A DNA stretch of 64,000 nucleotides from an uncultured bacterium (GTDB taxonomy: Bacteria; Patescibacteriota; Minisyncoccia; UBA6257; GWB1-50-10): contig CAVYJB010000001.1 in the NCBI GenBank assembly GCA_963768835.1, forward strand, positions 216,420 through 280,419. Reading direction: 5' to 3'. Every line of letters starts with the position of its first letter. Position 1 is the first letter of the stretch. Below, in pieces: positions 45,754 through 63,093 of the stretch. The notes under the pieces were generated by a model. That model had not been told where the DNA came from. It was given only the letters and a program-made list of their open reading frames with translations, and made no database searches. A program made the position numbers and the translations under genes.

Positions 45754-45758
45754 ACGGC

Positions 45759-47375
45759 ATGGAAGGAAGTGAGGATAACAAGGTTTTTTCCACTAGAACC
45801 ATCGTCATTACGATATTAATTATCGTGGGAGTTGTGTGCCTGGTAGCTTATATTAGCAACTCCTTTAGTAATAATGGAATTAGTACAAATAACAACACCG
45901 CTAACCAAAATTATTATTCGGCGCAAGGAAACTTCTCCGCCTATTTCCCCTCGCAACCAACATACTCGACTGCTTCTCAAGAATTAACCGCTAACAATGA
46001 AGTCGTTGAAGACGATTACTCTTGGGGACAAAGCGATGGATTCTGGAAGTCCCAACTTGAAGCGACTTATGTCGCTTCACCTTTTCCAAATTCAGCGTTG
46101 ACGCCGCAAAAGAATCTTGAAAGCGAGATACAATATACGGGCAACTCGAGCGCGTTTAATCTCATTTCCTCTACCTCTACAACATTAGATGGTTTTCCGG
46201 CCATCGCTTATGCCATTCAATCCAAATCAAATCCAACCGAATACAATATCGGGAAAGATGTGCTTACCAATCATGGTTTGTATATGCTCGGATATTTTTA
46301 TAGCGGCCAAGAAAATAAACAGCTAGAAAATACTTTTCTCAATTCTTTAACCTTTGGGACTCCTATCAACGCGAACGCGCCGCAAGCACCATCATCGCCA
46401 TCGCAACAAAATACGCAACCAACAAACCAGCAATCGCAAAACTCCGCTCCGAGTACCTCTGGTAGCTTGACGACGACATTAATCAATCGGATTGAGCCAT
46501 CCATTGTTGAGATAAATTGCTATTCAGCAAATGACAGCGTAGTAGTGAGTGGATCCGGCACATCCAATCTCAATAACGGAGTTCTTCATATTACAACTAA
46601 TTATCACGTTTATAATGAAGCTAGCGGAGGAGGAACGCCCACTTGCTATGCTGTTTATCCAGAGCCGCCAGATTTTTCGTACAACGCAGAATATGGAGAT
46701 TATCAACTCGTATTAGTTAGCCATGAATATGATACCGATACCTATGAAGATGAAGCAGAATTTACCATCGGCGCACTATATCCCTCAGCAACGCCATTGA
46801 ACCCTCTGCCATCAATTAATAATTTGCCGCTCACGGGAAGTGGCGGGGTAGGTTGTCCCGATGCAACTGTTGGCGATACCGTAACCGTTTTCGGCTATCC
46901 GGCATCGGGCAACTTACTTGGGATTTCAGAAACGGTAACGCAAGGAACGATAGCCGGCATTCTCCCGGGGCCGATTTATAAATTCGATGGCGCAATTGAT
47001 CATGGTAACTCTGGCGGCCTTGCTGTTTTGAATAAAGATAGTTGCGTTTTAGGCATTCCAACCTTAGGGGACTCGGGGCTTACGGCAGGAATCGGTTATA
47101 TTCAATCATTTAGTCTTGCAAGCCAGCCAGTAACGCAAACTAATGCCCAAATATGTCAAAACAATTATGGTGCATATAGTGTATGGAATGGACAAACCAA
47201 CAGTACAGGTGGGCCGACATGCGATTGCGAAAGAGGTTATGAGTGGAACTCGAACCAGACGGCGTGTGTTGCGCTTACGCCAGATCAAATATGCGAACGA
47301 GATATTGGTGCGGGAAGTTATTATCTGGGCTATGATAATCCAAACGGCACCTTGGCGTGTAGTAGCCCTAACTAA
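45759..47375 (+). CDS. membrane-anchored secreted trypsin-like (S1 family) serine protease with Cys-rich C-terminal domain
   Basis: N-terminal TM anchor; TNYHV (His), D, and DHGNSGG (Ser) catalytic triad context; Asn/Ser/Thr-rich linker; 10 Cys in last 90 aa. Confidence 0.7.
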   Translation: MEGSEDNKVFSTRTIVITILIIVGVVCLVAYISNSFSNNGISTNNNTANQNYYSAQGNFSAYFPSQPTYSTASQELTANNEVVEDDYSWGQSDGFWKSQLEATYVASPFPNSALTPQKNLESEIQYTGNSSAFNLISSTSTTLDGFPAIAYAIQSKSNPTEYNIGKDVLTNHGLYMLGYFYSGQENKQLENTFLNSLTFGTPINANAPQAPSSPSQQNTQPTNQQSQNSAPSTSGSLTTTLINRIEPSIVEINCYSANDSVVVSGSGTSNLNNGVLHITTNYHVYNEASGGGTPTCYAVYPEPPDFSYNAEYGDYQLVLVSHEYDTDTYEDEAEFTIGALYPSATPLNPLPSINNLPLTGSGGVGCPDATVGDTVTVFGYPASGNLLGISETVTQGTIAGILPGPIYKFDGAIDHGNSGGLAVLNKDSCVLGIPTLGDSGLTAGIGYIQSFSLASQPVTQTNAQICQNNYGAYSVWNGQTNSTGGPTCDCERGYEWNSNQTACVALTPDQICERDIGAGSYYLGYDNPNGTLACSSPN

Positions 47376-47383
47376 TAAATCAA

Positions 47384-48043
47384 GTGATGGACTATCTATT
47401 ATCTAACCCTAAATACGAAAAGGAGTTATTAGACGAACTGCCGGAAAAACTGAAACCTACTTTTCAAGAGAAGTTGTCGAGGGTGATGACGGGCTATTGG
47501 AAAACTTTGGCCGAGGCAAGGGCCATCGTTATTTTTTTCAAAAAGCTCAAGTTGTTACCTCCCGAATTTCAGGATATTGATATAAAGACATTCAAAGATA
47601 AAGATGTGGATTTTGCCTTTCTTTTTGATAAAGAAAAAATCAACGTCGAGGTTAAAGGATTTAATCCCGACGACGAAGCGTCCGAAGATTATAGTAGCTT
47701 CGCTATCAACACCGGAGACGATGATATTCGTAGGGCGTTAAAAAGAGCAAACAATAAGTTATTAGAAAATTCTTACAACATCGTCATAATCGCAGACGAA
47801 GACACTTTGCATCCGCTTGGTAATAAGAAGCAGGACGAGTTAGATAAAATTTTTGAAGAGGATTTTTATAAAAAGATAAGTGCTTTTATAATTCTCGGCC
47901 CACTTTGGGCAGGCGACCCATTCAAACAATCCGATTTTCTATCCGGTCCTGCGTTCAAATTTACTAGCATCGCCTACAATAAAAATGCACAAAACCCCTT
48001 ACCCTCAAAGTTAAGGGATGCGCTGGATAAAAATAGGGAGTAA
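47384..48043 (+). CDS. hypothetical protein
   Basis: 219-aa Lys/Asp/Glu-rich ORF, AT-rich, same cargo segment. Confidence 0.6.
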   Translation: MMDYLLSNPKYEKELLDELPEKLKPTFQEKLSRVMTGYWKTLAEARAIVIFFKKLKLLPPEFQDIDIKTFKDKDVDFAFLFDKEKINVEVKGFNPDDEASEDYSSFAINTGDDDIRRALKRANNKLLENSYNIVIIADEDTLHPLGNKKQDELDKIFEEDFYKKISAFIILGPLWAGDPFKQSDFLSGPAFKFTSIAYNKNAQNPLPSKLRDALDKNRE

Positions 48044-48198
48044 TAATCGTCTCTTGCCCGCGCAATGGGAGAGCTGGGGCAAGGGCAAGAACCGCTTTCT
48101 TGAGGGTCAGGCACGCAAGACGTAGGATTTTCCCGCCAGACAGGAATAGGGTCGCAAAACGTGGAACTACCACCTCTGAGCGCGCCCCAAAGGAGGGG

Positions 48199-48465
48199 TT
48201 GGGGGAGGAATTTGGGCGCGCCATACGCGAAGTCCCGAGGCCAGCAGGCCGAGGGGCTGAGCACACCATCTCGGAGGGGGTCTAGCGGAGTGAAGTAGGA
48301 CTTTGGATTTTCTCCGGCGACATCCCGAAGCCCATATTTTTCAGATCAATCTCGACTTGCTACCCCATCACTCCGAGGGGTAGCGCATGATGGGGTAAGT
48401 GATGGGGTAAATCGGTCAGGAATTTTGCTTGAAATGCGTCCGAATTGTATGATACAAACACCACC
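48199..48465. repeat. inverted repeat B, right copy (ends CCACC)
   Basis: reverse complement of 45211..45478. Confidence 0.85.
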
Positions 48466-48510
48466 CGACACTGCTTATAAACCAACACCGCCCCCGAGGG
48501 CGGTGTTGCG

Positions 48511-49977
48511 CTATTTCACGTGATGCCTTTCCTTCATTTCCTCTTCCGCCCCCGCCTCGAACTCGTCTTTCTTCTCGCGGGCCTTGGAAGATAGCTTCTG
48601 GAGTTCCGCATCGGAGAGCATTCCAAGCTCCCGGGCTCGGGTTTCAAGATAAACCTTCTCGTTTCGTCTCGGATCGTCCAGCACGTCCTCGAGAAGGATA
48701 GAAAGAACGGCGCCTATTTTCGGTCCCGCCGGAATATTGAGCATCCGCATCACATCATCGCCCTTGACCGCAAGCATCTTCGGATGGATGGGGTCTCGGC
48801 GCACCTTATCGATCATGAACAGCAGGTGACGGAGTTTGTATGGGAAGGCCTTCGGGACGCCGGAGCCGATGCGATCAGCCTCGCGAACCTTCAAAAGATC
48901 GTCCACGTGCTCGGGGCCCACGCGCACCAGGAACCGCCGCACGCCGGCTTCGGTTACCTCCCCCACGTTGTAGTAGAAGAGATGGCAACGTACGAGATGA
49001 GTTACCTCTTCCACAATCTCTTTCGAGAAGCGCAACCGATCCAGTATTTTTGCAGTCATCCGTGCGCCCACCATCTCGTGGTTATAGAAAGTGGAGTCGG
49101 GTCCATCCCCGCCCTTCGTGCGGGGCTTCCCTACGTCATGCAGTAGCGATGCGAGCCGCACCACGAACGAGTAGTTCTTCTCGGCCGCGTAGTTCAAGGC
49201 CCGCACATTGTGATCGAAAACCGTGTAGATGTGGTGTTTGTTCTGGCCGCACCCGATGCCCTCGCGCAACTCGGGGACGATGAACTGGAGGAGTCCTAAC
49301 TCCTCAAGCAGCACGATTCCTTCCGCCGCGCGCGCCGTGAGTAACATCTTCGTAAATTCGTCTCGCACGCGCTCCTTTGCGATCATCTCAAGATGCGGGG
49401 CTCCTGCCTGGATGGCTTCCCGGGTCTTGGGCTCAATAGCAAAACCCAGCTCCACCGCGAAACGCACCGCCCGAAGAAGCCGCAGCGCGTCCTCCCCAAA
49501 CCGTGCGGCAGGGTCCCCCACCGTGCGGATGGTTTTCCCCTTGAGGTCTTCCCGGCCCCCATAGGGGTCGATGATGCTATCCGCTCTATCCCCCGCAAGA
49601 CTGAGGGCGAGGGCGTTCACGGTGAAGTCGCGACGCGCGAGATCCTCTTCGATGGTTTTCGCGAACTTTACTTCGTCAGGATGTCGCTGGTCCGTGTAGC
49701 GCCCCTCAATACGATAGGTGGTCACCTCGACGACTTTGAGTTTTGAGTCCTCGGACTCGGTCTTCACGCCCACCGTGCCGAAGGTGTTCTCGTAAACGGA
49801 ATCGGGGAAGAGCTTCTGGATTCCCTCCGGCTTCGCGTTCGTTGCCACATCCCAGTCCTTCGGGTCGCGTTTCAGGAGCAGGTCCCGTACGCACCCCCCC
49901 ACCGCATATGCCTCGAAACCGGCGCCCGTGAGCGCCTTCGCGATGGCCCGTACTTCCTTCGGAACCTTGAATTCCAC
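48511..49977 (-). CDS. cca: CCA-adding tRNA nucleotidyltransferase with HD domain
   Basis: N-terminal Pol-beta-like NT motif GGCVRDLLL...DWD, central HD domain, 488 aa. Confidence 0.9.
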   Translation of the reverse strand: MEFKVPKEVRAIAKALTGAGFEAYAVGGCVRDLLLKRDPKDWDVATNAKPEGIQKLFPDSVYENTFGTVGVKTESEDSKLKVVEVTTYRIEGRYTDQRHPDEVKFAKTIEEDLARRDFTVNALALSLAGDRADSIIDPYGGREDLKGKTIRTVGDPAARFGEDALRLLRAVRFAVELGFAIEPKTREAIQAGAPHLEMIAKERVRDEFTKMLLTARAAEGIVLLEELGLLQFIVPELREGIGCGQNKHHIYTVFDHNVRALNYAAEKNYSFVVRLASLLHDVGKPRTKGGDGPDSTFYNHEMVGARMTAKILDRLRFSKEIVEEVTHLVRCHLFYYNVGEVTEAGVRRFLVRVGPEHVDDLLKVREADRIGSGVPKAFPYKLRHLLFMIDKVRRDPIHPKMLAVKGDDVMRMLNIPAGPKIGAVLSILLEDVLDDPRRNEKVYLETRARELGMLSDAELQKLSSKAREKKDEFEAGAEEEMKERHHVK

Positions 49978-50093
49978 ATGTTCATTCTAACCGACTCTCC
50001 CCTAAATGGAAGTTTGCGACCAAAAGTTGACAGAGGGTCGTGCGCGCCCTACCCTGGGTGCAGATCATTGCAACTATAAGGAAGGGAATCGTC

Positions 50094-50483
50094 ATGGAAG
50101 AGATGGAGCATCTCACGAGGATTGTTGAAGTTCTACAGGAAGAGGTCAAGAAGGTCCGCGCAGGCCAAGGCATTTTAGTGGACATACGGAGATTTCTGGA
50201 TGCCACGGACCGCCTCGCCACGATGGCGATTGAATTTTCCGGCACCGTGACGGCCGTAGAGAAAGAAATCGCGGAACAAAAATCGCTCGCCGAGGACAAG
50301 ATCACGGAAGAGAAGGTAAGAACCCAGCATGAAGCCGGCAGCGTCATTGAACGTATCCTCCAGGAACAATCGGATCCCTCTCTCCGTCCTGCCCTTGAAG
50401 CGCTCAAGGACGCGCTCCGAAGGGGCAGCTACTACAAGGAACCAGACGAGCTTCTGTTCTTGGTCGGGAAGGAAATCGCCTGA
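50094..50483 (+). CDS. hypothetical coiled-coil protein
   Basis: ORF from 50040; likely start MEEMEHL at 50094. Confidence 0.45.
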   Translation: MEEMEHLTRIVEVLQEEVKKVRAGQGILVDIRRFLDATDRLATMAIEFSGTVTAVEKEIAEQKSLAEDKITEEKVRTQHEAGSVIERILQEQSDPSLRPALEALKDALRRGSYYKEPDELLFLVGKEIA

Positions 50484-50531
50484 CCGCCGCGGGGCTATCA
50501 CACGATTCATAAGCCGCCCCCGCGGCTTTTT

Positions 50532-52130
50532 TTATTCCCGCGAGCAGGATAGAATGCTTGAGAAGCGCCCGTAGCTCAACTGGATAGAGCATTTGCCTTC
50601 GAAGCAAAGGGTTCCAGGTTCGAGTCCTGGCGGGCGCACAAAGTGAGACGTTTCGCCGTCAAAGTCCCTGTTTAGCGAGAAGACAAGGGATAGTTCGGCG
50701 GTTCCAAATTTCCCGTCCGCAAAAGTTACTTTTTGCGGGAATACTAGGTTTTGGAACCTAACCTTGAGGGGGTACTTAAGCCGCCGCCACGTCTCGGATG
50801 AATTCCGGACGAACTGGAAGCAGTAATCGAGAGCCGCCTCCATGTTGAATTCCTCGATATGGTTTTCTCGCAAAAGGCGATGCTTCTCCGCAATTCGTTC
50901 GTTAATAATCGCTTTTTGTTCCGTAAATTCGTCGTCGGTGTATTTGCCCGCCCGGTGCAAATCAAACACCTTGAGCCGTTCCTGTTCTAGCTCTCCTATC
51001 TCCCGCCGGGTTCGTTCGCTAACCTCATTGAACTGCTTATAGTTCGTTTTCCATACGTCAAGGACCACAGCGCGAAATAGTTTTTCAAACCGCGCGGACG
51101 GGCTAATTTCCGTGAGATACTTGGCGAACTGGTCCTCAAACTCCTTTTGCGCGATGAACTTCGCCTCTGTGCATCCCTGAATATGGTGATGGTAATAGGC
51201 GTAGCGCTTGCCCTTGCGCCCCGTTGAGGTACTTCCTGTAAGCGCTCGCTTACACACGGGACAGTGAACGAAGCGCCGAAGGGGAAAGTCTGGGTTCGCT
51301 ACGTTGCGGACCAAAGGGCGCGCTCCGCCCTCGCGGACCAAGCGGCACTCCTCGAATACTTCTGGCGTCACTAAACTCTCGAACGTCCCATTGTTTCGTT
51401 CTCCAAATGCTTCAATGATGCCGCAATAGAGGGGGTTCTCTAGAACACGCTGAATAAACTGTTTCCTCGGTTTCTTGCCCGTCGTGGTCCGCAAACCGCG
51501 CTCAGCCATATACTCTGCTAACGATTCGTAACTGTGGGTTCCCTCGCGCCATTCGTCAAATATAAGCCGGTAAAGGTGCTTTGTTGCTTCAATGGGGGCG
51601 ATATTCGAGCCCTTTGCACCCCTTAGGGGCCGATAATAACCAGGTGGTTCTCTCCACTGCCAAATGCCCTTTCTAACATTTTCTAACATCCCGCTTTTAG
51701 AGCGCTCGGTACGCACGTTGTTATCGAACTCTGCAAAAACGGATAACATCCCCTCCATCGCCGCGCCTACTGGCGTGCTATCTATTGGTTCAGTTGTTGA
51801 GCAAAGCTCGGTGCCGTGTTTGTTGAGAATCGCACGGACCGTCGCGTGGTCATACTGCTTACGCGAGAAGCGGTCAATTTTGTAGACGATGAAATAATCT
51901 ACAGGGTGCCTTTTGTCCGAGCAAAACGCAATCGCTTTAAGGAATTCCGGTCTATTGGCGGTCTTCGCGGATTCTCCCCGATCCACAAACACCTTGAGTA
52001 ACTCGATACCGTTCCGGGCGGTGTACTCCCGAATGTTTTTCTCCTGCATTTCCAAGCTAGTGCCCTCCACTTGCTCTTTCGAGGAGACGCGGCAATACCC
52101 AATCCCAGTTTTCTTCTCTATGACGCTCAT
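50532..52130 (-). CDS. large serine recombinase (integrase); 3' end reads antisense through tRNA-Arg
   Basis: GYCRVSSKEQ catalytic Ser region, recombinase domain, zinc ribbon HCPVCKRALTG, coiled-coil; 532 aa. Confidence 0.85.
   Translation of the reverse strand: MSVIEKKTGIGYCRVSSKEQVEGTSLEMQEKNIREYTARNGIELLKVFVDRGESAKTANRPEFLKAIAFCSDKRHPVDYFIVYKIDRFSRKQYDHATVRAILNKHGTELCSTTEPIDSTPVGAAMEGMLSVFAEFDNNVRTERSKSGMLENVRKGIWQWREPPGYYRPLRGAKGSNIAPIEATKHLYRLIFDEWREGTHSYESLAEYMAERGLRTTTGKKPRKQFIQRVLENPLYCGIIEAFGERNNGTFESLVTPEVFEECRLVREGGARPLVRNVANPDFPLRRFVHCPVCKRALTGSTSTGRKGKRYAYYHHHIQGCTEAKFIAQKEFEDQFAKYLTEISPSARFEKLFRAVVLDVWKTNYKQFNEVSERTRREIGELEQERLKVFDLHRAGKYTDDEFTEQKAIINERIAEKHRLLRENHIEEFNMEAALDYCFQFVRNSSETWRRLKYPLKVRFQNLVFPQKVTFADGKFGTAELSLVFSLNRDFDGETSHFVRPPGLEPGTLCFEGKCSIQLSYGRFSSILSCSRE
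50565..50638 (+). tRNA. tRNA-Arg (anticodon TCG), no encoded CCA
   Basis: manual fold: acceptor GCGCCCG/CGGGCGC, D-arm GCTC-AACTGGATA-GAGC, anticodon arm TTTGC-CTTCGAA-GCAAA, T-arm CCAGG-TTCGAGT-CCTGG. Confidence 0.85.
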
Positions 52131-52414
52131 GGTGTAATTTTACCCTCGTCCTCTACACGATGTAAGCCCCAAGCGGGACTTTTGGAACCGCCCCCTATCC
52201 CTAAATATCCACCATTTTCCACCCAGTCATCGAACATAACACCCGCAAGCCCGTACAGTGCCCCCAATACGCGTTCCAATTCGTCGTCTGGGACGCTTTC
52301 TAGGCTTGGGTCTACCTTTCTAGCTTGGTCAACAGATAACATGGATTTCATAGGCACCCGCCAATCTACCAAAATCAACCATTTCCTACCGTTTACTACC
52401 GATAAAATCGGATG

Positions 52415-52855
52415 CTACATAACCTGCTCATCGGCCCATGTATGAGCCCTTTCACGCATATCTGTGATATTTTTTGCAACAAACATGAGAAACGCCGGAT
52501 TCTTAAAATAGCCGTTTAAGCCACCGACAATGACGACCTGTTTCTGTATCTCCTTGCACTCCCCGTAGGAGGCGGAAAACTCTTCATCTTGCTTTCTATA
52601 GCTCTCTAGGGTGTCAGCTGATACATTTATCGTCCGGGCAAAATCCCTAAAGAATGGAATCGCTTTCCGCTCGCTTAAATGATCGAGGCAATCCTCGAAA
52701 TAGCGGATCATTTCCTGTCCGAGCTCAGGCAAAGACTCTTTGGGGTAGGCGCGCGGCCTCCCTCCATTATTTCCAACTGCATATGTGTTTCCTTTTGGTG
52801 CTGGCATAAAAGAAAAACCCTCAAGAGAGGGCACAAAAACGCTTGCTTTGTGCAA
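52415..52855 (-). CDS. small-terminase-like DNA-binding protein (KGNxxAxGNxGGRP motif)
   Basis: probable start MPAPKGNTYAVGNNGGRPR at 52807; C-terminal FVAKN...W.DEQ resembles TerS tails. Confidence 0.5.
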   Translation of the reverse strand: MHKASVFVPSLEGFSFMPAPKGNTYAVGNNGGRPRAYPKESLPELGQEMIRYFEDCLDHLSERKAIPFFRDFARTINVSADTLESYRKQDEEFSASYGECKEIQKQVVIVGGLNGYFKNPAFLMFVAKNITDMRERAHTWADEQVM

Positions 52856-53244
52856 TCTCTTGAGGGTTTGCCACCGACAGCCTCTGCCGCTTACAAAAGT
52901 AAAGTTTTGTAAGGGCTAGGGAGGGCTCCCAACAGGCCAACTGCGGCTTTCGCCGCCGAGCTTGGGTTCATTTCCCTATGTTTTTCGTGTACCTCCTGTA
53001 ATGGTCAAGGCATTACACCTTCCATTAATGATTCTAGGTACCTTATCGCGCCCAACGTAATAGGTTTGGGAATTACGTTAAACTTGTCTCCGAAATGAGC
53101 TATCCAATCCTAGTACAAGTATAGCACGATTATTTGCGAAAATCAAATCGAGCTCGCCAAAAAATCGAGATTCCCTTAATTCTCTTATAAATTATATTAA
53201 AATATACCAATACTTCCGAATCTATGATTTCCCGGGTGTAAGTA

Positions 53245-55950
53245 TTAGAAAGCCCCATCAAATACCTTCTCGAATGCTGTTTCCTCATCGCGGTTGTAAA
53301 ACGGCAACCCTAAAACCCGATATTGATCCGTGTCTAATAGCGTCTTAACTAGACCTGCCACTTGAAGGTCTTTCAGAAAATTCTCTTTTGGCTTGTCCTC
53401 GGCCGACAAAAATTCACCTTTAGGCTCGATAAAAATCTGCCAAACACGATTTGCGCTCCGCTTACCGACTTTAGCTTTGCGTTGCACAAGACATAGAAGA
53501 TAGTCGGGCTGAAACGCTAGTCCTTCCTTAAAGGTGTAAAGCGTAATAACCCTCTCGTTTCGAATGAGATAAATCTCGCTGTAGCGCTTTTTTAATTTTT
53601 CAATGCGTCCATCGACAAATTTCACTAACCATTTTTCCTGATCTGTCCCAAAATCATCCTCATACACGTACCAATCACGCACATCAAGATTTAACCGCAG
53701 TGCTTGGTCTGTCGGCGGCACACGCACGCCATTCTTAGCCTCATATTCCCTACCGGACATAGAGCGTCCTCGCTCTTGTACTCCGGTCGGCATAGTCACC
53801 TGTATCTTTTTGTCGTTAATGAGCGTCGCTAGTTGTTGGGGTTTGAATTCCCTACTTCCGCGATATGTTGCTGTATGGGCAAGAATAGCGGTCTGTACTT
53901 CTCCTAAAATATGGACCAGTTGAATGAATACCTCGGAAGTCATCACCAAATCCCCGCCTTGCGGAATATGTATATCCACACGGATACGTCCGAGATATTT
54001 CGAGCCAGCAATAAATTCTTTGATGGAGGTGAGTTTGGGAAAATAGCGCCGGAGGTTGTCATAGTGGAAGAATGGCAACTTATCCATTGCTTTCCGTACA
54101 GCGTGCGCTGAGAGGTCGCCAAGCACCATACTAGTCGTCTTGTATTCGGGGTCCCTACCTCTGCCGTTCGTTTCGAATGCCGCTGTATCTCCGGAAAATC
54201 CCGATGCAACATGAATTTCAAGCGGCCTTCCTACCGCATCCGAAAATTTAGCAACCCCTATCCCAGTAGTTTCCTCCCGCGAATTCACAAAGACTCTTGC
54301 CCGACGGTAGAAGGGGGATTTTCGAAAATTACCCTTAAGCCGCAGGGGTAGTTCAACCGATTCATCAATCGCAAATCCTGTTTGTTTTAGAGCCTCTTTA
54401 AGTTCGCCAATATATCGGTGGTCCTCTTTGCTATGAAAATGCATCTGCTCCAGGGCCCGAAGCGGATTGCCTAAATCATTGTCGAACTTCCGTCGATCTA
54501 ACGGCTGACTGTCGTTCAATCGAAATGGCCAATATCGCGCTCCGCGCCCAATCAATTGAGCCTCGCGAATCGTGGCACGAATCCTACCCCTCTCGTCGTA
54601 AAGACGCACAATATCAAAGAGATTCAATACATCCCATCCCTCATTCAGAACCTCGACATCGAAAACTGCGCGAATTGGGTTGGTGGCATCTTCCAAATTT
54701 ACTAAGGTATTCAATAGTTTCGGATTGCGCCCAGTAATGGTGCCGTTAATAACCACACAGCGCTCGTGAGAAAACTCTGCCCTTAATATTCTCGCTAGCT
54801 GTGAATCAGAAATGTTGCTTTCTTCGTAAAACGTCAGGGCATCAAGCAGAATCCTGCTTTCAGATCGCCTCATCGCGATTTTCTTGAGCGCGGCAATATC
54901 TTTTGCTTCCAGGACATCAACCAATGCCCGGAATCGCTCGTAGTCATACTGTTGGGCATTAATGCGGTTAGATTTCAATAAAACCACGGGCTTAAGGGCT
55001 TTTTTGCGGCTTTCAGCAAGCTGTCGGCGGTATTCGGATATAACAAGTGCCTGGAGAATCCGCCCCTCAAGGCTTGCTTCTGAACGATGCAAAAACACAT
55101 CTTTTGAGTATCCGTCATTACGGAACTGTGGAAGGTCGTACTCAATAAGCACTCGTTCCGCATATTTCCGCGCGATGTTCTGATCGTTCCATCCAATGGT
55201 TGCTGTGAATTCTAGAAGCACGTTGTCCCGATGACTTTCAACAAGTTGTCGGATGGTCCATTCCCAAGAGGCCTCTAGCTCTCGTTCTTCCTGTTCACCG
55301 GCCCGAGTCAATGCATTAACGTGATGGGCCTCGTCAGAAATGAAAACCGTTTTCTCTCTTTTGAAGTCGTCCAAGGTAACGCTGTTTTCTTGAGAGTTGC
55401 GAATTCGGCTATGTAACCCGGCTAGCGTAGTGAAGATGATATTGATTGCATCAGGACTTCCAGATTCAAAGTTTTCTACCTCTCGAATCACAACCTCGTT
55501 CCCATGAATCACTACCGGGTCACGAAAAAGATATTTTGCGGATGATTTCTGTAAAAAATTATCCCTTGTTTTTAAGACAATGTTTGTCTTATCAACGAAA
55601 AATACAAAGTTACGGTAACCACGAGAATACAGATACAAAATCGCGCCCGCCATCACAACGGTCTTTCCACTGCCGGTCGCCATACTAAAGAGGAGTTCAG
55701 TGGGGCGTTTACGGTGGTCGTCCTTCTCAAGGTGGAAAACAAACCGAGAAAGAGCGGTTAGTTGGTACGGACGGAGGATGATCCCTGGCCGAAGATTTTC
55801 GGTAATGAGCCTCGGTATGGGGGTGACGCTACGCTCCTCAAGAACCTCATACCGCTGCGCTAGTCGTAGCGTGCTAGTGGTTGGCATAAAACGCTCGTGA
55901 ATGTTCTTTATCCTTTGCTGACACCTTGAATGTTGCGTCCTCCATGTCAC
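53245..55950 (-). CDS. res: Type III restriction endonuclease Res subunit (SF2 helicase-nuclease)
   Basis: helicase motif I ATGSGKT, DEAH box FISDEAHH, 901 aa, overlaps mod 3' end. Confidence 0.9.
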   Translation of the reverse strand: MTWRTQHSRCQQRIKNIHERFMPTTSTLRLAQRYEVLEERSVTPIPRLITENLRPGIILRPYQLTALSRFVFHLEKDDHRKRPTELLFSMATGSGKTVVMAGAILYLYSRGYRNFVFFVDKTNIVLKTRDNFLQKSSAKYLFRDPVVIHGNEVVIREVENFESGSPDAINIIFTTLAGLHSRIRNSQENSVTLDDFKREKTVFISDEAHHVNALTRAGEQEERELEASWEWTIRQLVESHRDNVLLEFTATIGWNDQNIARKYAERVLIEYDLPQFRNDGYSKDVFLHRSEASLEGRILQALVISEYRRQLAESRKKALKPVVLLKSNRINAQQYDYERFRALVDVLEAKDIAALKKIAMRRSESRILLDALTFYEESNISDSQLARILRAEFSHERCVVINGTITGRNPKLLNTLVNLEDATNPIRAVFDVEVLNEGWDVLNLFDIVRLYDERGRIRATIREAQLIGRGARYWPFRLNDSQPLDRRKFDNDLGNPLRALEQMHFHSKEDHRYIGELKEALKQTGFAIDESVELPLRLKGNFRKSPFYRRARVFVNSREETTGIGVAKFSDAVGRPLEIHVASGFSGDTAAFETNGRGRDPEYKTTSMVLGDLSAHAVRKAMDKLPFFHYDNLRRYFPKLTSIKEFIAGSKYLGRIRVDIHIPQGGDLVMTSEVFIQLVHILGEVQTAILAHTATYRGSREFKPQQLATLINDKKIQVTMPTGVQERGRSMSGREYEAKNGVRVPPTDQALRLNLDVRDWYVYEDDFGTDQEKWLVKFVDGRIEKLKKRYSEIYLIRNERVITLYTFKEGLAFQPDYLLCLVQRKAKVGKRSANRVWQIFIEPKGEFLSAEDKPKENFLKDLQVAGLVKTLLDTDQYRVLGLPFYNRDEETAFEKVFDGAF

Positions 55951-57673
55951 TGTAGTTCAGATATAGGTGGTTCATATCCAAACAATCAAGTAAGGCCTTT
56001 TTTTGGTGCAGGATGTCCAGCTTTTCAAACTTCTCTCTGCCGAACTTTTCCGGTCGCACAGGATAGCGGAAAAACGCTTCCTTCTGCATCTTTTTCCAAA
56101 TACTAAGTAAATCTTTTGTTGTTTTAGCATGTTCAATTTGTGTAACGTACCCAGCATTGAGTTGGTATAGTTCCATGTAAACAAAGCTACCACCTCCCCC
56201 CCAACCAACCTCCTGAGAAATTCCCGTCTGATCGCCCTTGATAATTTTTCTCAGTCTAGCGGTCGAATCGTTCTTGCTGTAATTGAGTTGCTCTATCCCG
56301 ATATAGCGACGTTTCATTTTGTGAGCTACCGCACAAGTCGTGCCACTGCCCAAATGATAATCCATCACTAAGTCGCCTTCGTTTGAGGCCATCTCTACAA
56401 TCCTTTTCAATAACTTTTCCGGCTTCTGAGTTAGAAATTCTTTGATTAGTTCAGTGTGATCTCTTTGGCTTTCTATGTAGGCTCGAGGATCTGCATAAAC
56501 TTGCCGAATATCAGTCCAAACAGTGGAAAGAGGGGTGCCCTTACTTTCATCAAGATACTGCTTAACCCAAATAGTCTTACCGTTTTTGTCGCGCCCGCGC
56601 ATTCTTTTTTGGTAACGCCTTCCATCCTCATCTACGTTTTTGAACCAGTCTTTTAGATACTTTTCTGAATACTCAATGTAGACCTTGTTTTGTTTTCGTT
56701 GAGTATAGTCTTTTGCATAATGCAGAATGTAATTGTGGATACCTACCGGCTTCGCTGTCGCGGCACGCCCACCGGAAGGTGAACCGTAGGACGAAACTAT
56801 CTCTTCAACAAAATTGTCTCTCCCAAAAACCTCATCGCACAGGACCTTGAGATAATGTGCTTCGTTGTCATCTATGTGAATAAAAATGTTTCCATCGCTC
56901 GATAAAAGATCACGAGCCACGCTTAGCCTATTCTTCATAAAAACCAACCAAGTAGAATGACTAAACTTGTCGTTGTACTTAAACTCATCCGAAGTGGTAT
57001 TAAAGGGTGGGTCTATGTATATCAGATTCACTTTTCCCCAGAAACGAGGCAAGAGCGAATATAGGGCCAAAAGATTATTGCCTCGAATGAGCAGGCTGTC
57101 ATTGGGACGAACGGTGTCAAGTGGCCACTTTCCTTTTTTATCAAAGCGCGTCCAGTTCGTGAGCACCTTCGGTTCGCGAAGTCGATCTACTTCGTCTGGC
57201 GCTAGTGTCGTGTTGTAAAAAATTTCCTCGCGCTTCTCGTCCGTTCTTTCCTGACCGCCCTCTAACACACAATCTTTATAGGGGAATGCTAGAACGACGT
57301 CGCGCGATTGCTTCAGTAAATCCCGGTCCGTCGTAGAAAGTCCAATATCGTTCCGAAATGCTGTGTACGAGCCGGGAAGAAAATCTGTCATTGCCACGAA
57401 GTCAATAAGTTTTTCTCGGAGCAGAACGGCTCCTACGCCAGGAACGGTTACAAAAAAATGTGCCCGTAAGACGGGCGCCGAGAATAACAACTTTACTAAT
57501 ATCGGATCAGCTCCGGCGGACAACTGTTCTAACTCCGTAATAAGCAACTGCGGCTTTTCGTCGTGGGACCACGATCGCTTATCTCTCCGCAGGACCGCAT
57601 CAAGAATAGCGCTTAGCTTCCCCCGTCCGCGACGACCACCGTCCTTCTTTTCCTCGTGTTTTTTGGTGGCCAT
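55874..57673 (-). CDS. mod: Type III DNA methyltransferase Mod subunit (N6-adenine)
   Basis: LIYIDPPF motif IV, SAM motif, 599 aa; 77-nt overlap with res typical of Type III systems. Confidence 0.9.
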   Translation of the reverse strand: MATKKHEEKKDGGRRGRGKLSAILDAVLRRDKRSWSHDEKPQLLITELEQLSAGADPILVKLLFSAPVLRAHFFVTVPGVGAVLLREKLIDFVAMTDFLPGSYTAFRNDIGLSTTDRDLLKQSRDVVLAFPYKDCVLEGGQERTDEKREEIFYNTTLAPDEVDRLREPKVLTNWTRFDKKGKWPLDTVRPNDSLLIRGNNLLALYSLLPRFWGKVNLIYIDPPFNTTSDEFKYNDKFSHSTWLVFMKNRLSVARDLLSSDGNIFIHIDDNEAHYLKVLCDEVFGRDNFVEEIVSSYGSPSGGRAATAKPVGIHNYILHYAKDYTQRKQNKVYIEYSEKYLKDWFKNVDEDGRRYQKRMRGRDKNGKTIWVKQYLDESKGTPLSTVWTDIRQVYADPRAYIESQRDHTELIKEFLTQKPEKLLKRIVEMASNEGDLVMDYHLGSGTTCAVAHKMKRRYIGIEQLNYSKNDSTARLRKIIKGDQTGISQEVGWGGGGSFVYMELYQLNAGYVTQIEHAKTTKDLLSIWKKMQKEAFFRYPVRPEKFGREKFEKLDILHQKKALLDCLDMNHLYLNYSDMEDATFKVSAKDKEHSRAFYANH

Positions 57674-57700
57674 GACTTATAAATCTTTAGCTCTTCATTG

Positions 57701-58141
57701 TTATTCTCTCAAGCTCTGCGGCCATATTATTTTCTGTACAATCCGGCGGGCAGGAATTACCCCCTCAATTCCGTGCTTCTTCGCAATTTCTAACGGGAGA
57801 TGGATAAGGATAGGAACAGGAAGTTGACGATCTGCTTCTGGGACCACAGCCTTATTCACGTAGTACCCGACCCGGTCAAGTATGTCCCGGCAGGCATTCA
57901 GTCTCACGCTCTCGCTCCGTGCCTTCTGCGAGAGGTGAAATACCATCGAGGCGACATCTCCCGCTCGTTCCTCCAAATACGCCCGAATGTTAGGTTTTGT
58001 TAGGTTCTCACTCCCCACAGAACGCGCTGTAGCCCTGTTCTGAGGCTTGTAGGCGCGGCTAGCGGCTTCTGTAGCGTTTCCCGTTTCAAGATAGGCGCTC
58101 GCAAATTTTCGCTGTTTTTTAGAGAGCCCCTCCATTTTCAA
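57701..58141 (-). CDS. terS: phage terminase small subunit (P27/Terminase_2 family)
   Basis: LSKKQRKFASAYLETGNATEAASRAY N-terminal signature. Confidence 0.8.
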   Translation of the reverse strand: MKMEGLSKKQRKFASAYLETGNATEAASRAYKPQNRATARSVGSENLTKPNIRAYLEERAGDVASMVFHLSQKARSESVRLNACRDILDRVGYYVNKAVVPEADRQLPVPILIHLPLEIAKKHGIEGVIPARRIVQKIIWPQSLRE

Positions 58142-58149
58142 GTTGTATT

Positions 58150-59261
58150 CTATTTGTCTTCAGCCCATTCAAACCTATCCTTGAGTCGGGCATATCTACT
58201 AAAAGGAATTTTTCCGAAGTGCTCAAGTCTGCCGATAACAATGCCCGTATCAATTTTTTCCTTCTCGGAGAATTTCTTTATGCATTCCATCGTATAGCAG
58301 TTGCCTTCTAGAAACTCATGAAAGTCTTTGCTTGGAATTAAGACCTCAGAAGCAAACTCGTTTGCCTTTAGCTCCTTCTCGCTTTTCTCATTAAGCCCAT
58401 TCTCAAAATCGATATTGAGCTCTCTTTTCCCATGAAGTAGGAGATGCCCTATCTCATGGAACAAACTTGAACCAAAATATATCGCATGACCGGTAGAGTA
58501 TACTCATTTGTATCATGGCTTTTTCTGGAGAAAGCCCACCTAGACACTCCATTGATGGGGGTGTTTTTTAGGCTCGGGGTTACAGTAAAGGCAACGCCAC
58601 ACTTCGATAAGATATTTTGGATCCCGTCTTGTATGGCCTTTGGTTTTTCAAGAATCAAGGCGCGGATTTGTGGTACGGCATCTCGAAGTTTTTCTGCATC
58701 GAATTTCTCTGTTGGAGCGCCCTGACAATCAACAATCCCTTTTCTCAGCCAAGCGGCCACAGATTGGGGAGATACCTTTCTTTTTTCAGACTTCCTGTAG
58801 AGTAAGGTGAGATCTCCCATTAACTCTCTCTTTACAACATCTTTTAAAGAAACGGCGCCGAAAAAGGAGCGAAGATTACCCACCATTTCAATCGAATCTC
58901 TTGTGGCAGGCACCCAATTCAGTTTCTCCATTTCAATATATGGGTAGGACGTTGAGATTTTTATCTCCTTACTCATAGCTTCTTGATCCCGAATTCTAGC
59001 TTTCACGTCCTGATAGTTAGATTCCAAGTTGTTCCAGACACCCGCGGGAATGCTCAAGACCTGTTCGAGTTGAATTACCGTCTCTGCAGTGATTGCTGTC
59101 TTGCCCTTTATAATTTCGTTTACCACTTGTAATGGCCGTTGCATTCTGCGGGCGAGATCGGCCTGGGTCATATTTCTTTCCTGAAGTGCCTCAAGTAAGG
59201 TTTCTCCCGGCGCTATCGGCAGTATTGGATAGTATGAAGTGAATTTTTTGAGCATGGTCAC
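58150..59261 (-). pseudogene. XRE-HTH / ImmA-IrrE metallopeptidase fusion (HigA-like antitoxin), frameshifted
   Basis: 58449..59261 carries HTH (MTQADLARRMQRPLQ) and peptidase N-part; 58150..58464 starts FHEIGHLLLH (HExxH); 16-nt overlap in different frames. Confidence 0.7.
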
Positions 59262-59605
59262 TTTTCCTTGTGGTAATTAATTTTTATCTCTGCGACTGAC
59301 AATGAGTCTATTTTATTCCAATCAACCCCCCCGTTCTCTTGAGTGTAAGTTCCAGGGTCGTTTTCAATATTAAAGATGATTCTGTCCGGCTCTACCAAAT
59401 GGACCCCAATTTGATGTTTCCTGTCATATTTTAACTCGTGCCACTTTCCTGGTGCATGCCGTAAATCAGCAAGGGTATTTGCGGAACGCGCTTGATCAAG
59501 TCGAAGAAAAATTTTCTTTGCCATAGGAACACCAAACGCTGCCTTGCATGTTCGGAGCGAAGTTAATTGGTGTCTGAGTTTCTGGGAAATAAAAACTTGC
59601 ATCAT
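59258..59605 (-). CDS. HigB-like (RelE/ParE superfamily) toxin
   Basis: PGKWHELKYDRKHQIGVHLVEPDRIIFNI matches the HigB killer-protein pattern; ATGA overlap with downstream antitoxin. Confidence 0.7.
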   Translation of the reverse strand: MMQVFISQKLRHQLTSLRTCKAAFGVPMAKKIFLRLDQARSANTLADLRHAPGKWHELKYDRKHQIGVHLVEPDRIIFNIENDPGTYTQENGGVDWNKIDSLSVAEIKINYHKEK

Positions 59606-60031
59606 TACTCAATTGGTGACTGATAGGTGGCCTAAGAATCGCTTTCTTAGCTTTGTCGGGTGAAAAGGCAATCATACTCATTATTATAGCATTCACCCTT
59701 TAGGTGAATACAATTGAAGCATATACGGCTCCGCTTTGCAAGAGCATACCTATACTGGTCGCTTCAAATCCCACTAGGCACTAATAGCCCCTGCCAGACC
59801 GACCTTTTTGGCTTCTCTTGCAAATAGCGCCCAATTATTCAACTCTAGTAGTATTGGGTTCCAACTTCGCATCACTTGGGGCACATGGTAGTGAGACCGA
59901 CCGAGGTGCGTCAATGCTGACGATTTCCGAGTCCGTCAAGGCGCACCCCGGAAGGACTCGAACCGAACCAAACGCTTTTTATCGGAAGGGTCGATAGGGG
60001 GTTCAGGTCTTGTTACCCGGATTTGAGCCCT

Positions 60032-61076
60032 TTATGTCCAGAACCAAATCTCGTTCTTGAGCCGCTCGCGGAGCGCATGGCCGTTCGCGTGCGAGAGCAC
60101 GCCAAGATACGACTGGAGCGATTGTTCGAGGCTTTGCATGCCGATGTCACCACGATGGTATTCCCGAATCCTTTCTCGGAACTTCTTGAATATCCGCCTC
60201 CTCGTTTTCGTGCGGACGAGACGGTGGTTCGGGAATACGTTGTATCCCAAGAAGTCCACCCCTTGATGCAGGGCGCGAATAGCAACCTTTTGCGGATGAA
60301 GCTCCAGCGAGAGCCGTTCCTTCAGAAAACGCGCAATCGGTGGTAGCATATCTTCCAGGTAGCCCTTGGTAGGAGAGACCACGACGAAATCGTCGGTATA
60401 TCGGAAGTAGTCCTTCACCCGCAGCTCGTGCTTCATAAAATGATCGAATTCGTGCATATATACGTTGGCGAAAAGCTGGGAGGTCAGATTGCCTATCGGC
60501 AATCCCTTGTGACTCTCTCTCTCTCGAGAGAGAGAGAGAGTAGCTCCCGACGATAGACTGGAGGAGCCACAGCGCGTTCTCGTCTGCTATCCTCCGTGCC
60601 AGGAGCGAGAGGAGGATTGCGTGATCCACGCTGTCGAAGAACTTCCGAATGTCACACTTGAGGACGAAGCACGGGCACGTGCCGTTCCTCCCGAGAGCCC
60701 GCGCACGTTCTTCAAGCCTCGCAACCCCCTTGTGGGTGCCGTAGCCCACGCGGCAGGAAAAGGAGGTCGGGATGAACGTTTCCTCGAAGATCGGGTTCAG
60801 GACCGCAACCACGGCGTGGTGCAGCACCCGGTCCCGCACCGTCGCTTTGTGGATGTGCCGCTGCTTCGGGTCGCGGATGTAGAAGCTTTGGTACGGGCCG
60901 TGCTGGTAGGTTTGGTTTTTCAGCTCGCGGTGGAGGCCGAAGATGTGCTCCTCAAGATGCCGCTCGAACCGCATGACATCGGGCTTATTCCGTTTTCCCC
61001 TCTTGAAGGAATCCCATGCTGAAAAGAGATTCTCCGGCGCGATGAGCCGGTCGAACAGGCCTCTATACACTTTCAT
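60032..61076 (-). pseudogene. DGR-type reverse transcriptase interrupted by a 28-nt palindromic insertion
   Basis: N-ORF 60147..61076 has RT motifs 1-3 (FVLKCDIRKFFDSVDH); C-ORF 60032..60502 has motif 4 LPIGNLTSQLFANVY (DGR-specific IGxxxSQ) and YTDDFVV; removing 60513..60540 restores frame. Confidence 0.85.
60513..60540. repeat. 28-nt (CT)6C/(GA)7G perfect palindrome inside the RT gene
   Basis: ctctctctctctc gagagagagagagag; exactly the length needed to explain the frame break. Confidence 0.9.
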
Positions 61077-61090
61077 GCTCTTATAAAGCC

Positions 61091-61441
61091 ATGGACGATT
61101 TCGACATCCCGATCTTCAAGAGAACCTACGACCTCTACAAAACCTTCTACGGGTACCGTGACGGCATCCAGAAGCAGGACCGCCACACCATCTGGCAGAA
61201 GTGCGAGAACATCATCCTCGAGATTCTCGAAGGGATACTCCTCGCGAGCCAGGCGTATAAATCCGAGAAGCTGCCGATCCTCGAGAGGGTCAGCGTGAAG
61301 CTGAATGTGCTGCGCGTCTTTCTCCGGCTGATGAAGGACGTCAAGATAATCGATAACAAGAAATACACGACCTTGGAGGGACTGGTGGACGAGATCGGAC
61401 GCATGCTCGGCGGGTGGATCAAGTCCTCGAGAGACCGATAA
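61091..61441 (+). CDS. avd: Avd-like accessory variability determinant (four-helix-bundle, 23S IVS protein family)
   Basis: 116 aa, IPIFKRTYDLYKTFYGY N-terminus typical of Avd/IVS proteins; located between RT and TR; divergent from RT with a 14-nt gap. Confidence 0.65.
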   Translation: MDDFDIPIFKRTYDLYKTFYGYRDGIQKQDRHTIWQKCENIILEILEGILLASQAYKSEKLPILERVSVKLNVLRVFLRLMKDVKIIDNKKYTTLEGLVDEIGRMLGGWIKSSRDR

Positions 61442-61487
61442 AAGAATGCCCCGCGTGGCGGGGCATTCAGCAATGGATGGAGGGGTG

Positions 61488-61607
61488 ACTGCCGGGCGGA
61501 GGCAAGACCGATGTTGTCGTTGCGGTTGTCGTCCCAGTTGTTGTTGACGTTCAAGCCGTCGGAATCGAAGTTGCCGACGTTGACCCGGTTGCCGTCCGAA
61601 TCCACAT
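61488..61607 (-). repeat. DGR template repeat (TR)
   Basis: 120 bp; differs from VR at 15 positions, all T on + strand (A on coding strand); coding-strand translation rich in AAC (Asn). Confidence 0.9.
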
Positions 61608-61962
61608 ATTGCCCGCTTCCGTCCGTGGCACCGGAGGTCGAGGGTTGCCGCTCAAAAGGAGCTTATATCCTCTCCCCCCTGAATTTCATTCGGGAGTAGC
61701 CCCTCCTGGGGCACCTCCACTAGAAGCGAGCAAGAAGTCCATCTCCATCCTTCGCCGCACGCTGCCGCAATCCGTGGACGGCGGCATTCTGGCGACATCT
61801 CAAAGGAGAGATATCTTGCGAGGCAAAGCCGTGACCGCGCCTGCATGAGCAAGATATGAAGAGTATAGCAAGCGGGCGTATGAAAAGAAATGAGCCTCCG
61901 GCGAAAATATCGCGCGGAGGCTCAAGGAATCAAGAGGGTCAAGCCCTCAAAGCTTCGAGGTT

Positions 61963-62739
61963 CTACCCGGACTTCCGGGCGGAGGCAAGACCGATGCTGT
62001 CGCCGCGGCCGCCGTCCCAGCCGCCGCTGACGTTCAAGCCGTCGGAACCGAAGCTGCCGACGATGACCCGGTAGCCGTCCGAATCCACATCCGAGGAGCG
62101 GACGTAGATCTTCTCGAAGAGCCGTTCGCCCGTCGCGAGGAAGTGGCCGATGATGGTGTAGACCATCACGCGTGCCGTGGGCACCTCCTCGTTCTTGCCG
62201 AGGAGCAGTTGCTGCTCGTCCCATGTCTTGCTCGTCGAGTTCTCGACCGGAGTCTTCCGCACAAGCTTCCATCCCATCTCTCCGCGATCCTTGGCGAAGG
62301 CCTGCTTGTTGTACCAATCCTGGCCATAGAACAGGCGCTGGCCGCTCGGGATTTTTCCGCCACGGATTTCGAGGATAGAGAGCGGGAAGACAACGACGAG
62401 AACGTGAGTGTCCTTGCAGCTCTCCAGCACGCCTTCCGTGAACGGGATCTCCGCGAGGGCGGCGAGTTGCTGCTTCGAGGGATTGAACCCGAAGTGCCCG
62501 ATCGCCTCCGCGACGCCGAAGAAGTTCTTGCCCATGATCTCGCAGGCACGCTTCTGACTCGTCGTCGGTTCGAAGCCACCGTTCTGGATCAGTCTCACCA
62601 CCTTCGTAGCGAGATCGTTCTCCTTCGAGATGATGACTTTCTGGGCGAGCTCGTCGGTGAGACCTGCGGCCTCGAGCTTCAGGAGCACTTCGTGTTCCTT
62701 ATGCACCGACAGGGTGCGGCTCATGATGGGTTCCATCAC
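61963..62739 (-). CDS. DGR target protein with C-terminal variable region (CLec-like ...GGWDGGRGDSIGLASA tail)
   Basis: 258 aa; AGGAGG RBS; VR encodes last ~40 aa. Confidence 0.8.
   Translation of the reverse strand: MMEPIMSRTLSVHKEHEVLLKLEAAGLTDELAQKVIISKENDLATKVVRLIQNGGFEPTTSQKRACEIMGKNFFGVAEAIGHFGFNPSKQQLAALAEIPFTEGVLESCKDTHVLVVVFPLSILEIRGGKIPSGQRLFYGQDWYNKQAFAKDRGEMGWKLVRKTPVENSTSKTWDEQQLLLGKNEEVPTARVMVYTIIGHFLATGERLFEKIYVRSSDVDSDGYRVIVGSFGSDGLNVSGGWDGGRGDSIGLASARKSG
61971..62090 (-). repeat. DGR variable repeat (VR) at the 3' end of the target gene
   Basis: 13 T-to-C and 2 T-to-A substitutions relative to TR (A-to-G/T on coding strand); palindrome cccggacttccggg at 61966..61979 at the VR end. 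Confidence 0.9.
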
Positions 62740-62808
62740 ATACCTCCTGTGGTTATAGATGACCGGAAATCTGTCCGGCGCAGTACCGCTTTTTCAAAGG
62801 GCAGTTAC

Positions 62809-62837
62809 ATTATACACTATAATATCGAGAATGTCAA
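62809..62837 (-). promoter_or_regulatory. consensus sigma70 promoter driving the DGR target gene
   Basis: minus strand reads TTGACA - 17 nt - TATAAT, about 65 nt upstream of the start codon. Confidence 0.7.
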
Positions 62838-63093
62838 ATCTAGCAGCAGGAGACCTGTTATGCTCAGCGGGCCGTCTTTCTAGGAGATTTTGACCTCCTT
62901 CTTCGCCATCGTGATCTTGCTCCGCAGGCAGGCCAAGAGTTCCCGCTTCTCAGGTATCGTCCCGTCCCGCAGGACGCATCAAATGGCACCAAGGAGTGGG
63001 GATCACCATTGCGCTCACCAGCGTGCTTATCCTTTTCGCTCTCACAGCACGATAACACACCACTTTTCAAACAGGATCGGATCGGTTATACAT

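Follow-up and report, generated by a model that had tools for sequence, protein, structure and literature searches.

We analysed a 64,000-nucleotide stretch of DNA from an uncultured bacterium of the Patescibacteriota (hereafter, the window) and found that it contained a 9,245-bp integrative island spanning positions 50,636-59,885, the ends of which could be set to within about 2 nt. The island consisted of a train of minus-strand genes to the right of an intact tRNA-Arg(TCG) gene, and its GC content was 46.6% compared with 56-57% in the flanks, which agreed with an earlier sequence-only reading of the same DNA in which it was called AT-rich. We conclude with high confidence that this is an island of a large serine recombinase (LSR), inserted at the very 3' terminus of the tRNA gene, with defined attachment (att) sites and with the LSR gene itself split between the two island ends. 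For the element as a whole, we lean slightly towards an LSR-inserted, defence-carrying, satellite-like island as the best explanation. The features are listed in Table 1.

The sequence-only reading had noted that the tRNA-Arg gene is followed by a serine recombinase reading through it, and this proved correct: the open reading frame (ORF) of the LSR crossed the entire tRNA-Arg gene in antisense. The body of the protein (M1-V498) was encoded at 52130-50637, the codons from V498 on were the reverse complement of the tRNA, and the final 34 aa were made up of antisense tRNA and its upstream flank. More than 1000 homologous sequences were found. Among the best 120 LSR homologues (about 505 aa, 48-58% identity), 99 ended in '...KSxLV-xPxG[FILV]EP...', which corresponds to a tRNA acceptor and T arm translated in antisense, and 13 ended in a conserved long tail, '...LVxxVGxxWNxLxxELxxWxxFG...'. 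A hidden Markov model (HMM) of these 13 long tails, compared with the six-frame translation of the window, gave a single match at 59777-59935 on the minus strand (E=3.8e-9), directly past the last island gene. The displaced tail ORF was intact, and joining the integrase body (...GETSHFV) to the displaced segment maintained the frame and yielded a 533-aa protein with the consensus tail. In the attP reconstructed in this way, CACTT/AAGTG arms surrounded a GC centre; its junction read …CATCACTTGGGGCACAAAGTGAGACG…, and the predicted empty attB junction read tRNA-Arg…GGCGGGCGCACATGGTAGTGAG….

The protein and its sites had the properties of an LSR system. In particular, a Resolvase catalytic domain, a Recombinase domain, a zinc ribbon and a coiled coil were combined in one protein of about 500 aa, and the very short core was centred in a dyad-symmetric attP without a long direct repeat. 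The long tail was predicted to be helical with a predicted local distance difference test score (pLDDT) of about 90 in an AlphaFold2 model of a homologue. The AlphaFold2 model of the homologue P0050 contained a long helical hairpin at residues 342-420, and a Foldseek search with this model matched full-length LSR structures with E-values down to 8e-20.

The attL and attR sites had the 5-nt GCACA alone in common, with the dyad centre at GC, and in attL this core took in the discriminator, the final acceptor bases before it and two bases further on. A public contig of 9,263 bp from a different assembly (L112) corresponded end to end to window 59882..50640 with 99% identity, opening with the 35-codon tail ORF and closing at int codon 497. 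Since L112 ends inside both GCACA cores, the island boundaries were confirmed to within 2 nt; in that assembly the island is a discrete unit, whether as an episome, as a presence/absence variant or as a repeat edge. The host-side gene to the left of the island, which encodes a CCA-adding enzyme, had its nearest relatives (60-73% identity) in Patescibacteria/Paceibacterota metagenome-assembled genomes labelled Jorgensenbacteria, Wolfebacteria and Liptonbacteria, in which the gene order tRNA-Lys(CTT), tRNA-Arg(TCG), CCA enzyme, tRNA-Pro, tRNA-Ala was kept. The spacing between the Arg and Lys tRNA genes was often 127-900 bp in relatives but 12.46 kb in the window; because this spacing is short in the relatives, 50640-63103 represents inserted DNA, namely the island and a diversity-generating retroelement (DGR).

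In the sequence-only reading, a direct repeat of the tRNA-Arg 3' end was to be sought as the att duplication, and its absence was to count against the island. No such repeat was present in the window (23-mer with <=3 mismatches, 12-mer with <=2 mismatches, and local alignment). The repeat is missing because the LSR crosses over in the last few tRNA bases, with a 5-nt core and a tRNA that is host-encoded almost to its end. As the integrase is of the serine type, the lack of an att duplication cannot refute the island, and the real marker of attR is the displaced int 3' end. The same reading had placed the far boundary near a tRNA-like piece at ~59.95 kb, which was close to the boundary found here (59.88 kb); the piece itself was rejected as attR, being inverted, tRNA-Lys-like and outside the island.

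We found the same split in other loci. The int 3' end overlapped a tRNA gene in antisense in five of them (L001, L003, L006, L106 and L107), the tRNAs being Glu-CTC, Lys-CTT and, three times, Glu-TTC. Four of these, L003, L006, L106 and L107, had the displaced tail at their far end (E 4.5e-11 to 1.7e-4), each with a 5-7-nt shared core at the tRNA terminus. Additionally, a 4,013-bp circular contig (141-bp terminal repeat; permuted copy in another sample) carried an unsplit long-tail LSR gene. This circle represents attP in the unintegrated state, and its real attP was nearly identical to the one reconstructed for L006. The circle was present in three samples (L089/L090/L091) with a small gene, the long-tail LSR, a 53-aa gene with a PIN toxin and two unknown ORFs, and is a minimal integrative episome of candidate phyla radiation (CPR) bacteria.

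The cargo of related islands was diverse. The same module of LSR and small gene was accompanied by a relaxase, a TraG-type coupling protein and a primase in an 18-kb contig (L088) and by TraG in L001, both of which are candidate integrative conjugative or mobilisable elements in Patescibacteria; L003 carried Gp49/HTH. An 11-nt repeat in L003 (5752-5762) was rejected as attR, the tail HMM setting the junction 85 nt further in; this repeat probably dates from an older event. In the Arg-Lys gaps of L025 and L031 and in L003, the tRNA 3' end was also repeated directly over short stretches (T loop or acceptor start) within a few hundred bp of the tRNA, and these repeats resemble scars left by previous integrations into those tRNAs.

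The small gene of the module, which encodes 83 aa in the window, was kept immediately upstream of the LSR in 7/7 related loci, and its product had no match in Pfam or other family searches. It is likely to encode the recombination directionality factor (RDF). Scans of IMG/VR with the LSR and with both small terminase (TerS) homologues described below gave no close relatives, and an exact look-up of the window integrase returned no contig. On alignment, the IMG/VR LSR relatives were only 22-34% identical; those at about 33% identity lay at the ends of 42-47-kb viral (prophage) contigs and also adjoined tRNAs, so that, as far as these sequences indicate, the habit of inserting at tRNA ends may be older than the CPR clade.

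Table 1. Positions of the island features and of the neighbouring retroelement in the window.
Feature	Position	Strand	Evidence
LSR, integrated form, 532 aa	50532..52130	-	Pfam Resolvase 1e-31, Recombinase, Zn_ribbon_recom; phrog_95 integrase 1e-78
tRNA-Arg(TCG), integration target, intact	50565..50639	+	ARAGORN; Rfam RF00005, 72 bits
attL core GCACA, extreme tRNA 3' end	50636..50640	.	only block shared in register with attR; L112 ends at 50640
83-aa gene, stop overlaps int ATG (ATGA); candidate RDF	52127..52378	-	conserved position
TerS1, gp3-like, 130 aa from ATG 52807	52415..52807	-	weak GP3_package; phrog_3064; phage matches
Hairpin with 23-bp arms and T run, terminator-like, between res and TerS1	52815..52869	-	inverted repeat I2, 91% complementary; terminator scan
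Res, Type III restriction subunit, 880 aa from ATG 55887	53245..55887	-	PADLOC REase_III 1e-120; Pfam ResIII
Mod, Type III methyltransferase, 599 aa	55874..57673	-	PADLOC MTase_III 3e-162; Pfam N6_N4_Mtase, TypeIII_RM_meth
TerS2, Terminase_2 (PF03592), SPP1/SF6 G1P-like	57701..58141	-	Pfam 2.5e-14; PDB 4zc3, 2cmp, 3zqp
XRE-HTH (HigA-like N-terminus) + M78/ImmA peptidase, HEIGH; frameshifted	58150..59261	-	Pfam HTH_3, Peptidase_M78
HigB-like candidate toxin, 115 aa, 4-nt overlap with HTH gene	59258..59605	-	phrog_3066 'toxin of TA system' 2.9e-6
Displaced int 3' end, 35 codons PQVMRSWNPILLELNNWALFAREAKKVGLAGAISA, P arm of attP	59777..59881	-	tail HMM, tblastn
attR core GCACA	59881..59885	.	shared block; L112 starts at 59882
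DGR reverse transcriptase (RT), IGNLTSQ motif, split between two frames	60032-61076	-	
DGR bAvd	61091-61441	+	PF22296 5e-20
DGR template repeat (TR)	about 61487-61606	-	86% identical to VR
DGR variable repeat (VR), inside ORF 61963-62739	about 61970-62089	-	every TR/VR mismatch at a TR adenine

We compared the integrase with known systems and found it to be similar to several of them but a member of none outside the LSRs. Canonical LSRs are directed to protein-coding genes or intergenic sites. The island enzyme shares with them (PhiC31, Bxb1, A118/LI, SPbeta, SCCmec Ccr) the domain order and fold, the short core and the dyad-symmetric attP, and its small partner gene could be an RDF as in those systems; in contrast to them, its whole clade targets tRNA 3' ends and has attP inside the int ORF. 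In a survey of 297 serine integrase elements, only 14 were located at t(m)RNA genes and were called previously unreported (PMC7192596), and tRNA is not mentioned in a large survey of LSR att sites (PMC10083194).

The split itself resembles that of the SSV1-type integrases, which are tyrosine recombinases of archaeal viruses and are divided within the main gene body. The island LSR differs from them in losing only the 35-aa C-terminal helix, all catalytic and DNA-binding domains being kept; it works like an SSV-type split integrase but, as a serine enzyme, is not a member of that group. In SSV1-type elements, the int gene contains attP and is divided when the element enters a tRNA gene, to be made whole again on excision (PMC8371274). 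Phage integration by a serine enzyme was also compared; as cited in the serine integrase survey, phiRSM uses a serine-family recombinase as its site-specific integrase (PMC7192596). The enzyme of this filamentous phage is a small resolvase-like 'S-Core' protein, whereas the island encodes a 500-aa LSR with Recombinase, Zn-ribbon and coiled-coil regions. Like the island, phiRSM integrates into a tRNA gene.

A literature search for serine recombinases with attP inside their own gene returned archaeal tyrosine SSV-type systems only, and a description outside the literature searched is possible. The tRNA-end-targeting LSR clade that splits its own gene is our best-supported new result and is apparently undescribed. 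Serine integrases are prized for genome engineering, and their natural targets have been thought to exclude tRNA genes; if the present reading is true, a large LSR clade whose gene splits itself and whose targets at tRNA ends are short, conserved and ubiquitous would broaden what is known of these enzymes as well as the set available as tools. The split also supplies a simple sequence rule for delimiting islands in CPR genomes, the mobile elements of which are poorly charted: one end carries an LSR that continues into antisense tRNA, and the opposite end carries the displaced tail ORF. More speculatively, a CPR-wide LSR clade of >1000 members might use tRNA 3' termini as attB, with each integration exchanging the conserved C-terminal helix for tRNA-antisense residues as a state-dependent change of the enzyme that would help to set directionality, and might serve as a chassis for mini-plasmids, conjugative elements and terS satellites; we regard this broader proposal as rather unlikely at present.

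In the proposed mechanism, the LSR of the island itself carried out the insertion at the very 3' terminus of tRNA-Arg(TCG). The attP lies inside the integrase ORF about 35 codons before the stop, with crossover within GCACA. Integration keeps the tRNA intact while fusing the integrase body to antisense-tRNA codons, and the conserved segment coding for the C-terminal helix is shifted to the far end (attR); excision, with the 83-aa protein as putative directionality factor, would restore the 533-aa integrase. The Type III restriction-modification (R-M) system would supply phage defence and addiction, and the toxin/HTH-M78 module beside attR, possibly inactivated by its frameshift, may serve as an induction switch or keep the island stable. 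The two TerS homologues would let the terminase and capsids of a helper phage package the excised island, as a satellite-like 'hitcher'.

The TerS homologues were examined as candidate packaging genes. Both had been recognised in the sequence-only reading, the second as a P27-family protein; we found instead that TerS2 belongs to Terminase_2, and that TerS1 and TerS2 have no relation to each other. Homologues of TerS2 were found in 176 phage records. The closest comparisons were with the TerS of a 43.8-kb phage contig (46% identity over 134/146 residues, including the oligomerisation core), which sits directly upstream of a GpA-type large terminase (TerL) gene, and with that of a 35-kb phage contig (53% identity), where TerL is about 2.7 kb downstream. 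A TerS2 homologue was also present in the LSR islands L106 (59% identity) and L107 (39%) at the same position as in the window, the order common to all three being attR, (toxin/HTH-M78), TerS, cargo, small gene, LSR, tRNA. For TerS1, the ORF as called was 146 aa (52415-52855) with the KGNxxAxGNxGGRP motif at its N-terminus, as noted earlier. Its true start is probably ATG 52807, and a database copy, 100% identical over the aligned part, was 130 aa long. Beyond this motif, the terminase signals of TerS1 were weak: a match to the phrog_3064 terminase (6e-7) and matches to a Vibrio phage 'DNA-packaging protein', with one other protein only in a word-index homologue search and nothing in a PDB sequence search. 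In the 35-44-kb phage contigs L109 and L110/L111, Cpn60 lay beside the terminase genes, together with Cpn10 in L110/L111; these contigs, which hold the phage TerS closest to TerS2, are possible relatives of a helper phage.

The overlapping Type III mod-res genes described in the sequence-only reading were recovered by PADLOC as an adjacent pair with near full-length matches, that of Res to REase_III included, and with a 14-nt overlap when the res start was placed at ATG 55887; the Type III R-M system is intact. It resembles EcoP15I-type systems in that mod is upstream of and overlaps res, in the N6_N4 methyltransferase with a Type III N-terminal domain and in the Res helicase; unlike these systems, the island mod contained no simple-repeat phase-variation tract. 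The second cargo module had been read as HigB with an XRE-HTH/ImmA protein, and this was borne out for the helix-turn-helix domain, the M78 peptidase and the HEIGH motif, whereas the HTH-ImmA gene proved to be frameshifted. At its N-terminus, TIGR02607 scored 45.6 bits, under the 47.7-bit cut-off, and PADLOC gave partial matches to capP/RmrA/PD-Lambda-2_B. The HigB-like assignment of the adjoining gene is based on the phrog_3066 match and the toxin-first order, with no match in Pfam. An Rfam scan of the island gave no match besides the tRNA, and its promoter and terminator scan was overall not above chance.

The satellite reading is supported because terS recurs in minimal LSR islands and is homologous to genuine phage TerS. 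As in Staphylococcus aureus pathogenicity islands (SaPI) and phage-inducible chromosomal islands (PICI), the element is a small site-specific island with an integrase, an HTH regulator candidate, phage-related terS, defence cargo and no structural or lysis genes. It combined a site-specific integrase, though of the serine type, and defined att sites with a packaging-redirection gene (TerS2 strong, TerS1 weak) in the absence of virion or lysis genes: no capsid, portal, TerL, tail or lysis family was found among the ORFs in or beside the island in Pfam and PHROGs, as the sequence-only reading had stated. In contrast to SaPI and PICI, which have tyrosine integrases, the island has a serine recombinase, two unrelated terS and a CPR/Patescibacteria host; it lacks a primase/replicase-ori module, a Stl/AlpA-type regulator and capsid-size or ppi genes. 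The phage-inducible chromosomal minimalist islands (PICMI) of Vibrionaceae have a tyrosine int, alpA and a primase core, lie next to fis and carry no terS, and their small gene iolg overlaps int by ATGA and is essential for excision (PMC10803314). The island shares with PICMI the very small gene content and the small gene overlapping int by ATGA, but it has none of the tyrosine int, alpA, primase or fis site and is not a PICMI.

Several observations weigh against a satellite-like, recently mobile island. No primase or helicase-rep replication domain was found in the 9 island ORFs (Pfam, PHROGs, NCBIfam), and the only regulator candidate among them was the frameshifted XRE-HTH/M78 fusion, with no AlpA/Stl type. 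Neither a pac or cos site for the island nor a helper phage or evidence of packaging was found. TerS1 reached 26.9 bits with GP3_package (5.6e-6), under the Pfam cut-off of 29.4. The HTH-M78 gene was frameshifted near 58464-58475 into ORFs 58449-59261 and 58150-58464, at a T run and with the same split in the independent contig L112. The LSR module alone does not imply a satellite, because same-LSR relatives carry relaxase and TraG rather than TerS. Regarding mobility, the attP and empty attB junctions gave 0 matches as 21-25-mers in Joint Genome Institute (JGI) metagenome contigs, and L112, which ended 2 nt short of a perfect circle, may reflect an edge of the assembly graph and not an episome. 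Weighing these points, we think it reasonably likely that the island was recently mobile, while its packaging by a phage as a true satellite is a credible possibility towards which we do not quite lean. The proposal of the sequence-only reading, a PICI-like satellite defence island, thus stands as regards a discrete tRNA-Arg island with defence cargo and a recurrent TerS and LSR architecture; a replication module, an AlpA/Stl-type regulator and a helper did not emerge, and PICI membership is not shown. Should the terS islands prove to be satellites, phage satellites would be indicated for the first time in Patescibacteria/CPR, and the islands would show how Type III R-M and other defence systems travel there.

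Other explanations were weighed against this one. The island might be an integrative defence or addiction island that is not a satellite and whose rare transfers occur through conjugative mobilisation, transformation or generalised transduction, its TerS homologues being HTH regulators or excision accessories. We consider this unlikely but worth serious attention, as the same LSR family carries relaxase, TraG and primase (L088) or TraG (L001), the 4-kb circles hold a toxin-antitoxin pair only, a replication module is lacking, and only the N-terminal DNA-binding part of TerS2 strongly matches Pfam and PDB. Against it, the alignment of TerS2 with bona fide phage TerS includes the oligomerisation core, TerS occurs in three LSR islands of which none has a conjugation gene, and no relaxase, coupling protein or oriT-type gene was detected in the window island (Pfam, PHROGs, NCBIfam), which also sets it apart from integrative conjugative or mobilisable elements.

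A decayed prophage that lost its structural genes and kept integrase, terS and morons is improbable in our view. The att ends are precise on both sides with the displaced tail ORF intact, the same 9.2 kb is discrete in a second assembly, the minimal architecture recurs independently in L106 and L107, and the two terS of unrelated families have R-M genes between them, unlike a packaging operon; such decay would fit the one frameshifted gene in the island and the distant LSR relatives (33% identity), which adjoin tRNAs where viral contigs end. Least probable, and in our judgement hardly tenable, is that coincidence or an assembly artefact accounts for the reading of int into the tRNA and for the far-end tail. 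Although three frameshifted genes in 20 kb suggest long-read errors, the pattern was found in 6 independent loci and 99/120 homologues, the tail HMM E-value was 4e-9, and the real circular attP agreed with the reconstruction; an artefact is also contradicted by replication across assemblies.

Further features were noted in the sequence in and around the island. The three frameshifted genes were the LSR of a second island (LSR2, 44.0-44.2 kb), HTH-M78 (58.46 kb) and the RT of the DGR (60.15-60.5 kb); in these genes, genuine decay is indistinguishable from systematic long-read homopolymer error. The DGR lay between the island and tRNA-Lys (window 60032-62739) and was not syntenic in relatives. 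The second island was located at tRNA-Ala(CGC) (window 43445-48465), and its LSR2, of a different family (about 25% identity), adjoined the tRNA 3' end. LSR2 was divided into 44024-45013 and 43507-44184 in the window, with an intact copy of 97% identity in L013. A 124-nt inverted repeat (43513-43636, 45093-45216) flanked LSR2, and a perfect 267-nt inverted repeat (45212-45478, 48199-48465) flanked a 2.7-kb AT-rich segment with two unknown ORFs, which may be an invertible cassette; L013 had the same layout.

On the host side of attR, the tRNA-like piece at window 59933-59969 (minus strand), 50-85 nt outside attR, corresponded to the 3' half of a gene resembling tRNA-Lys(CTT), with no 5' half. 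It shared a stretch of 18 identical nt with the tRNA-Lys of a relative and ran in the opposite orientation to tRNA-Arg; a separate integration or inversion event at this hot spot probably left it behind. Closer to attR (window 59886-59905), the antisense translation 'GRSHYH' resembled 'GETSHF' of int, with GTGAGAC in common; this resemblance was seen in the window only and not in L003 or L006, and it may be a remnant of the 3' end of an older resident integrase, which would imply serial integration. Additionally, the tRNA-Pro/tRNA-Ala block was inverted with respect to the CCA-enzyme gene in comparison with most relatives (window 42695-50639, loci L008-L054), and several relatives differed in the orientation of tRNA-Lys and tRNA-Arg, which suggests recombinase-driven inversions in the tRNA cluster.

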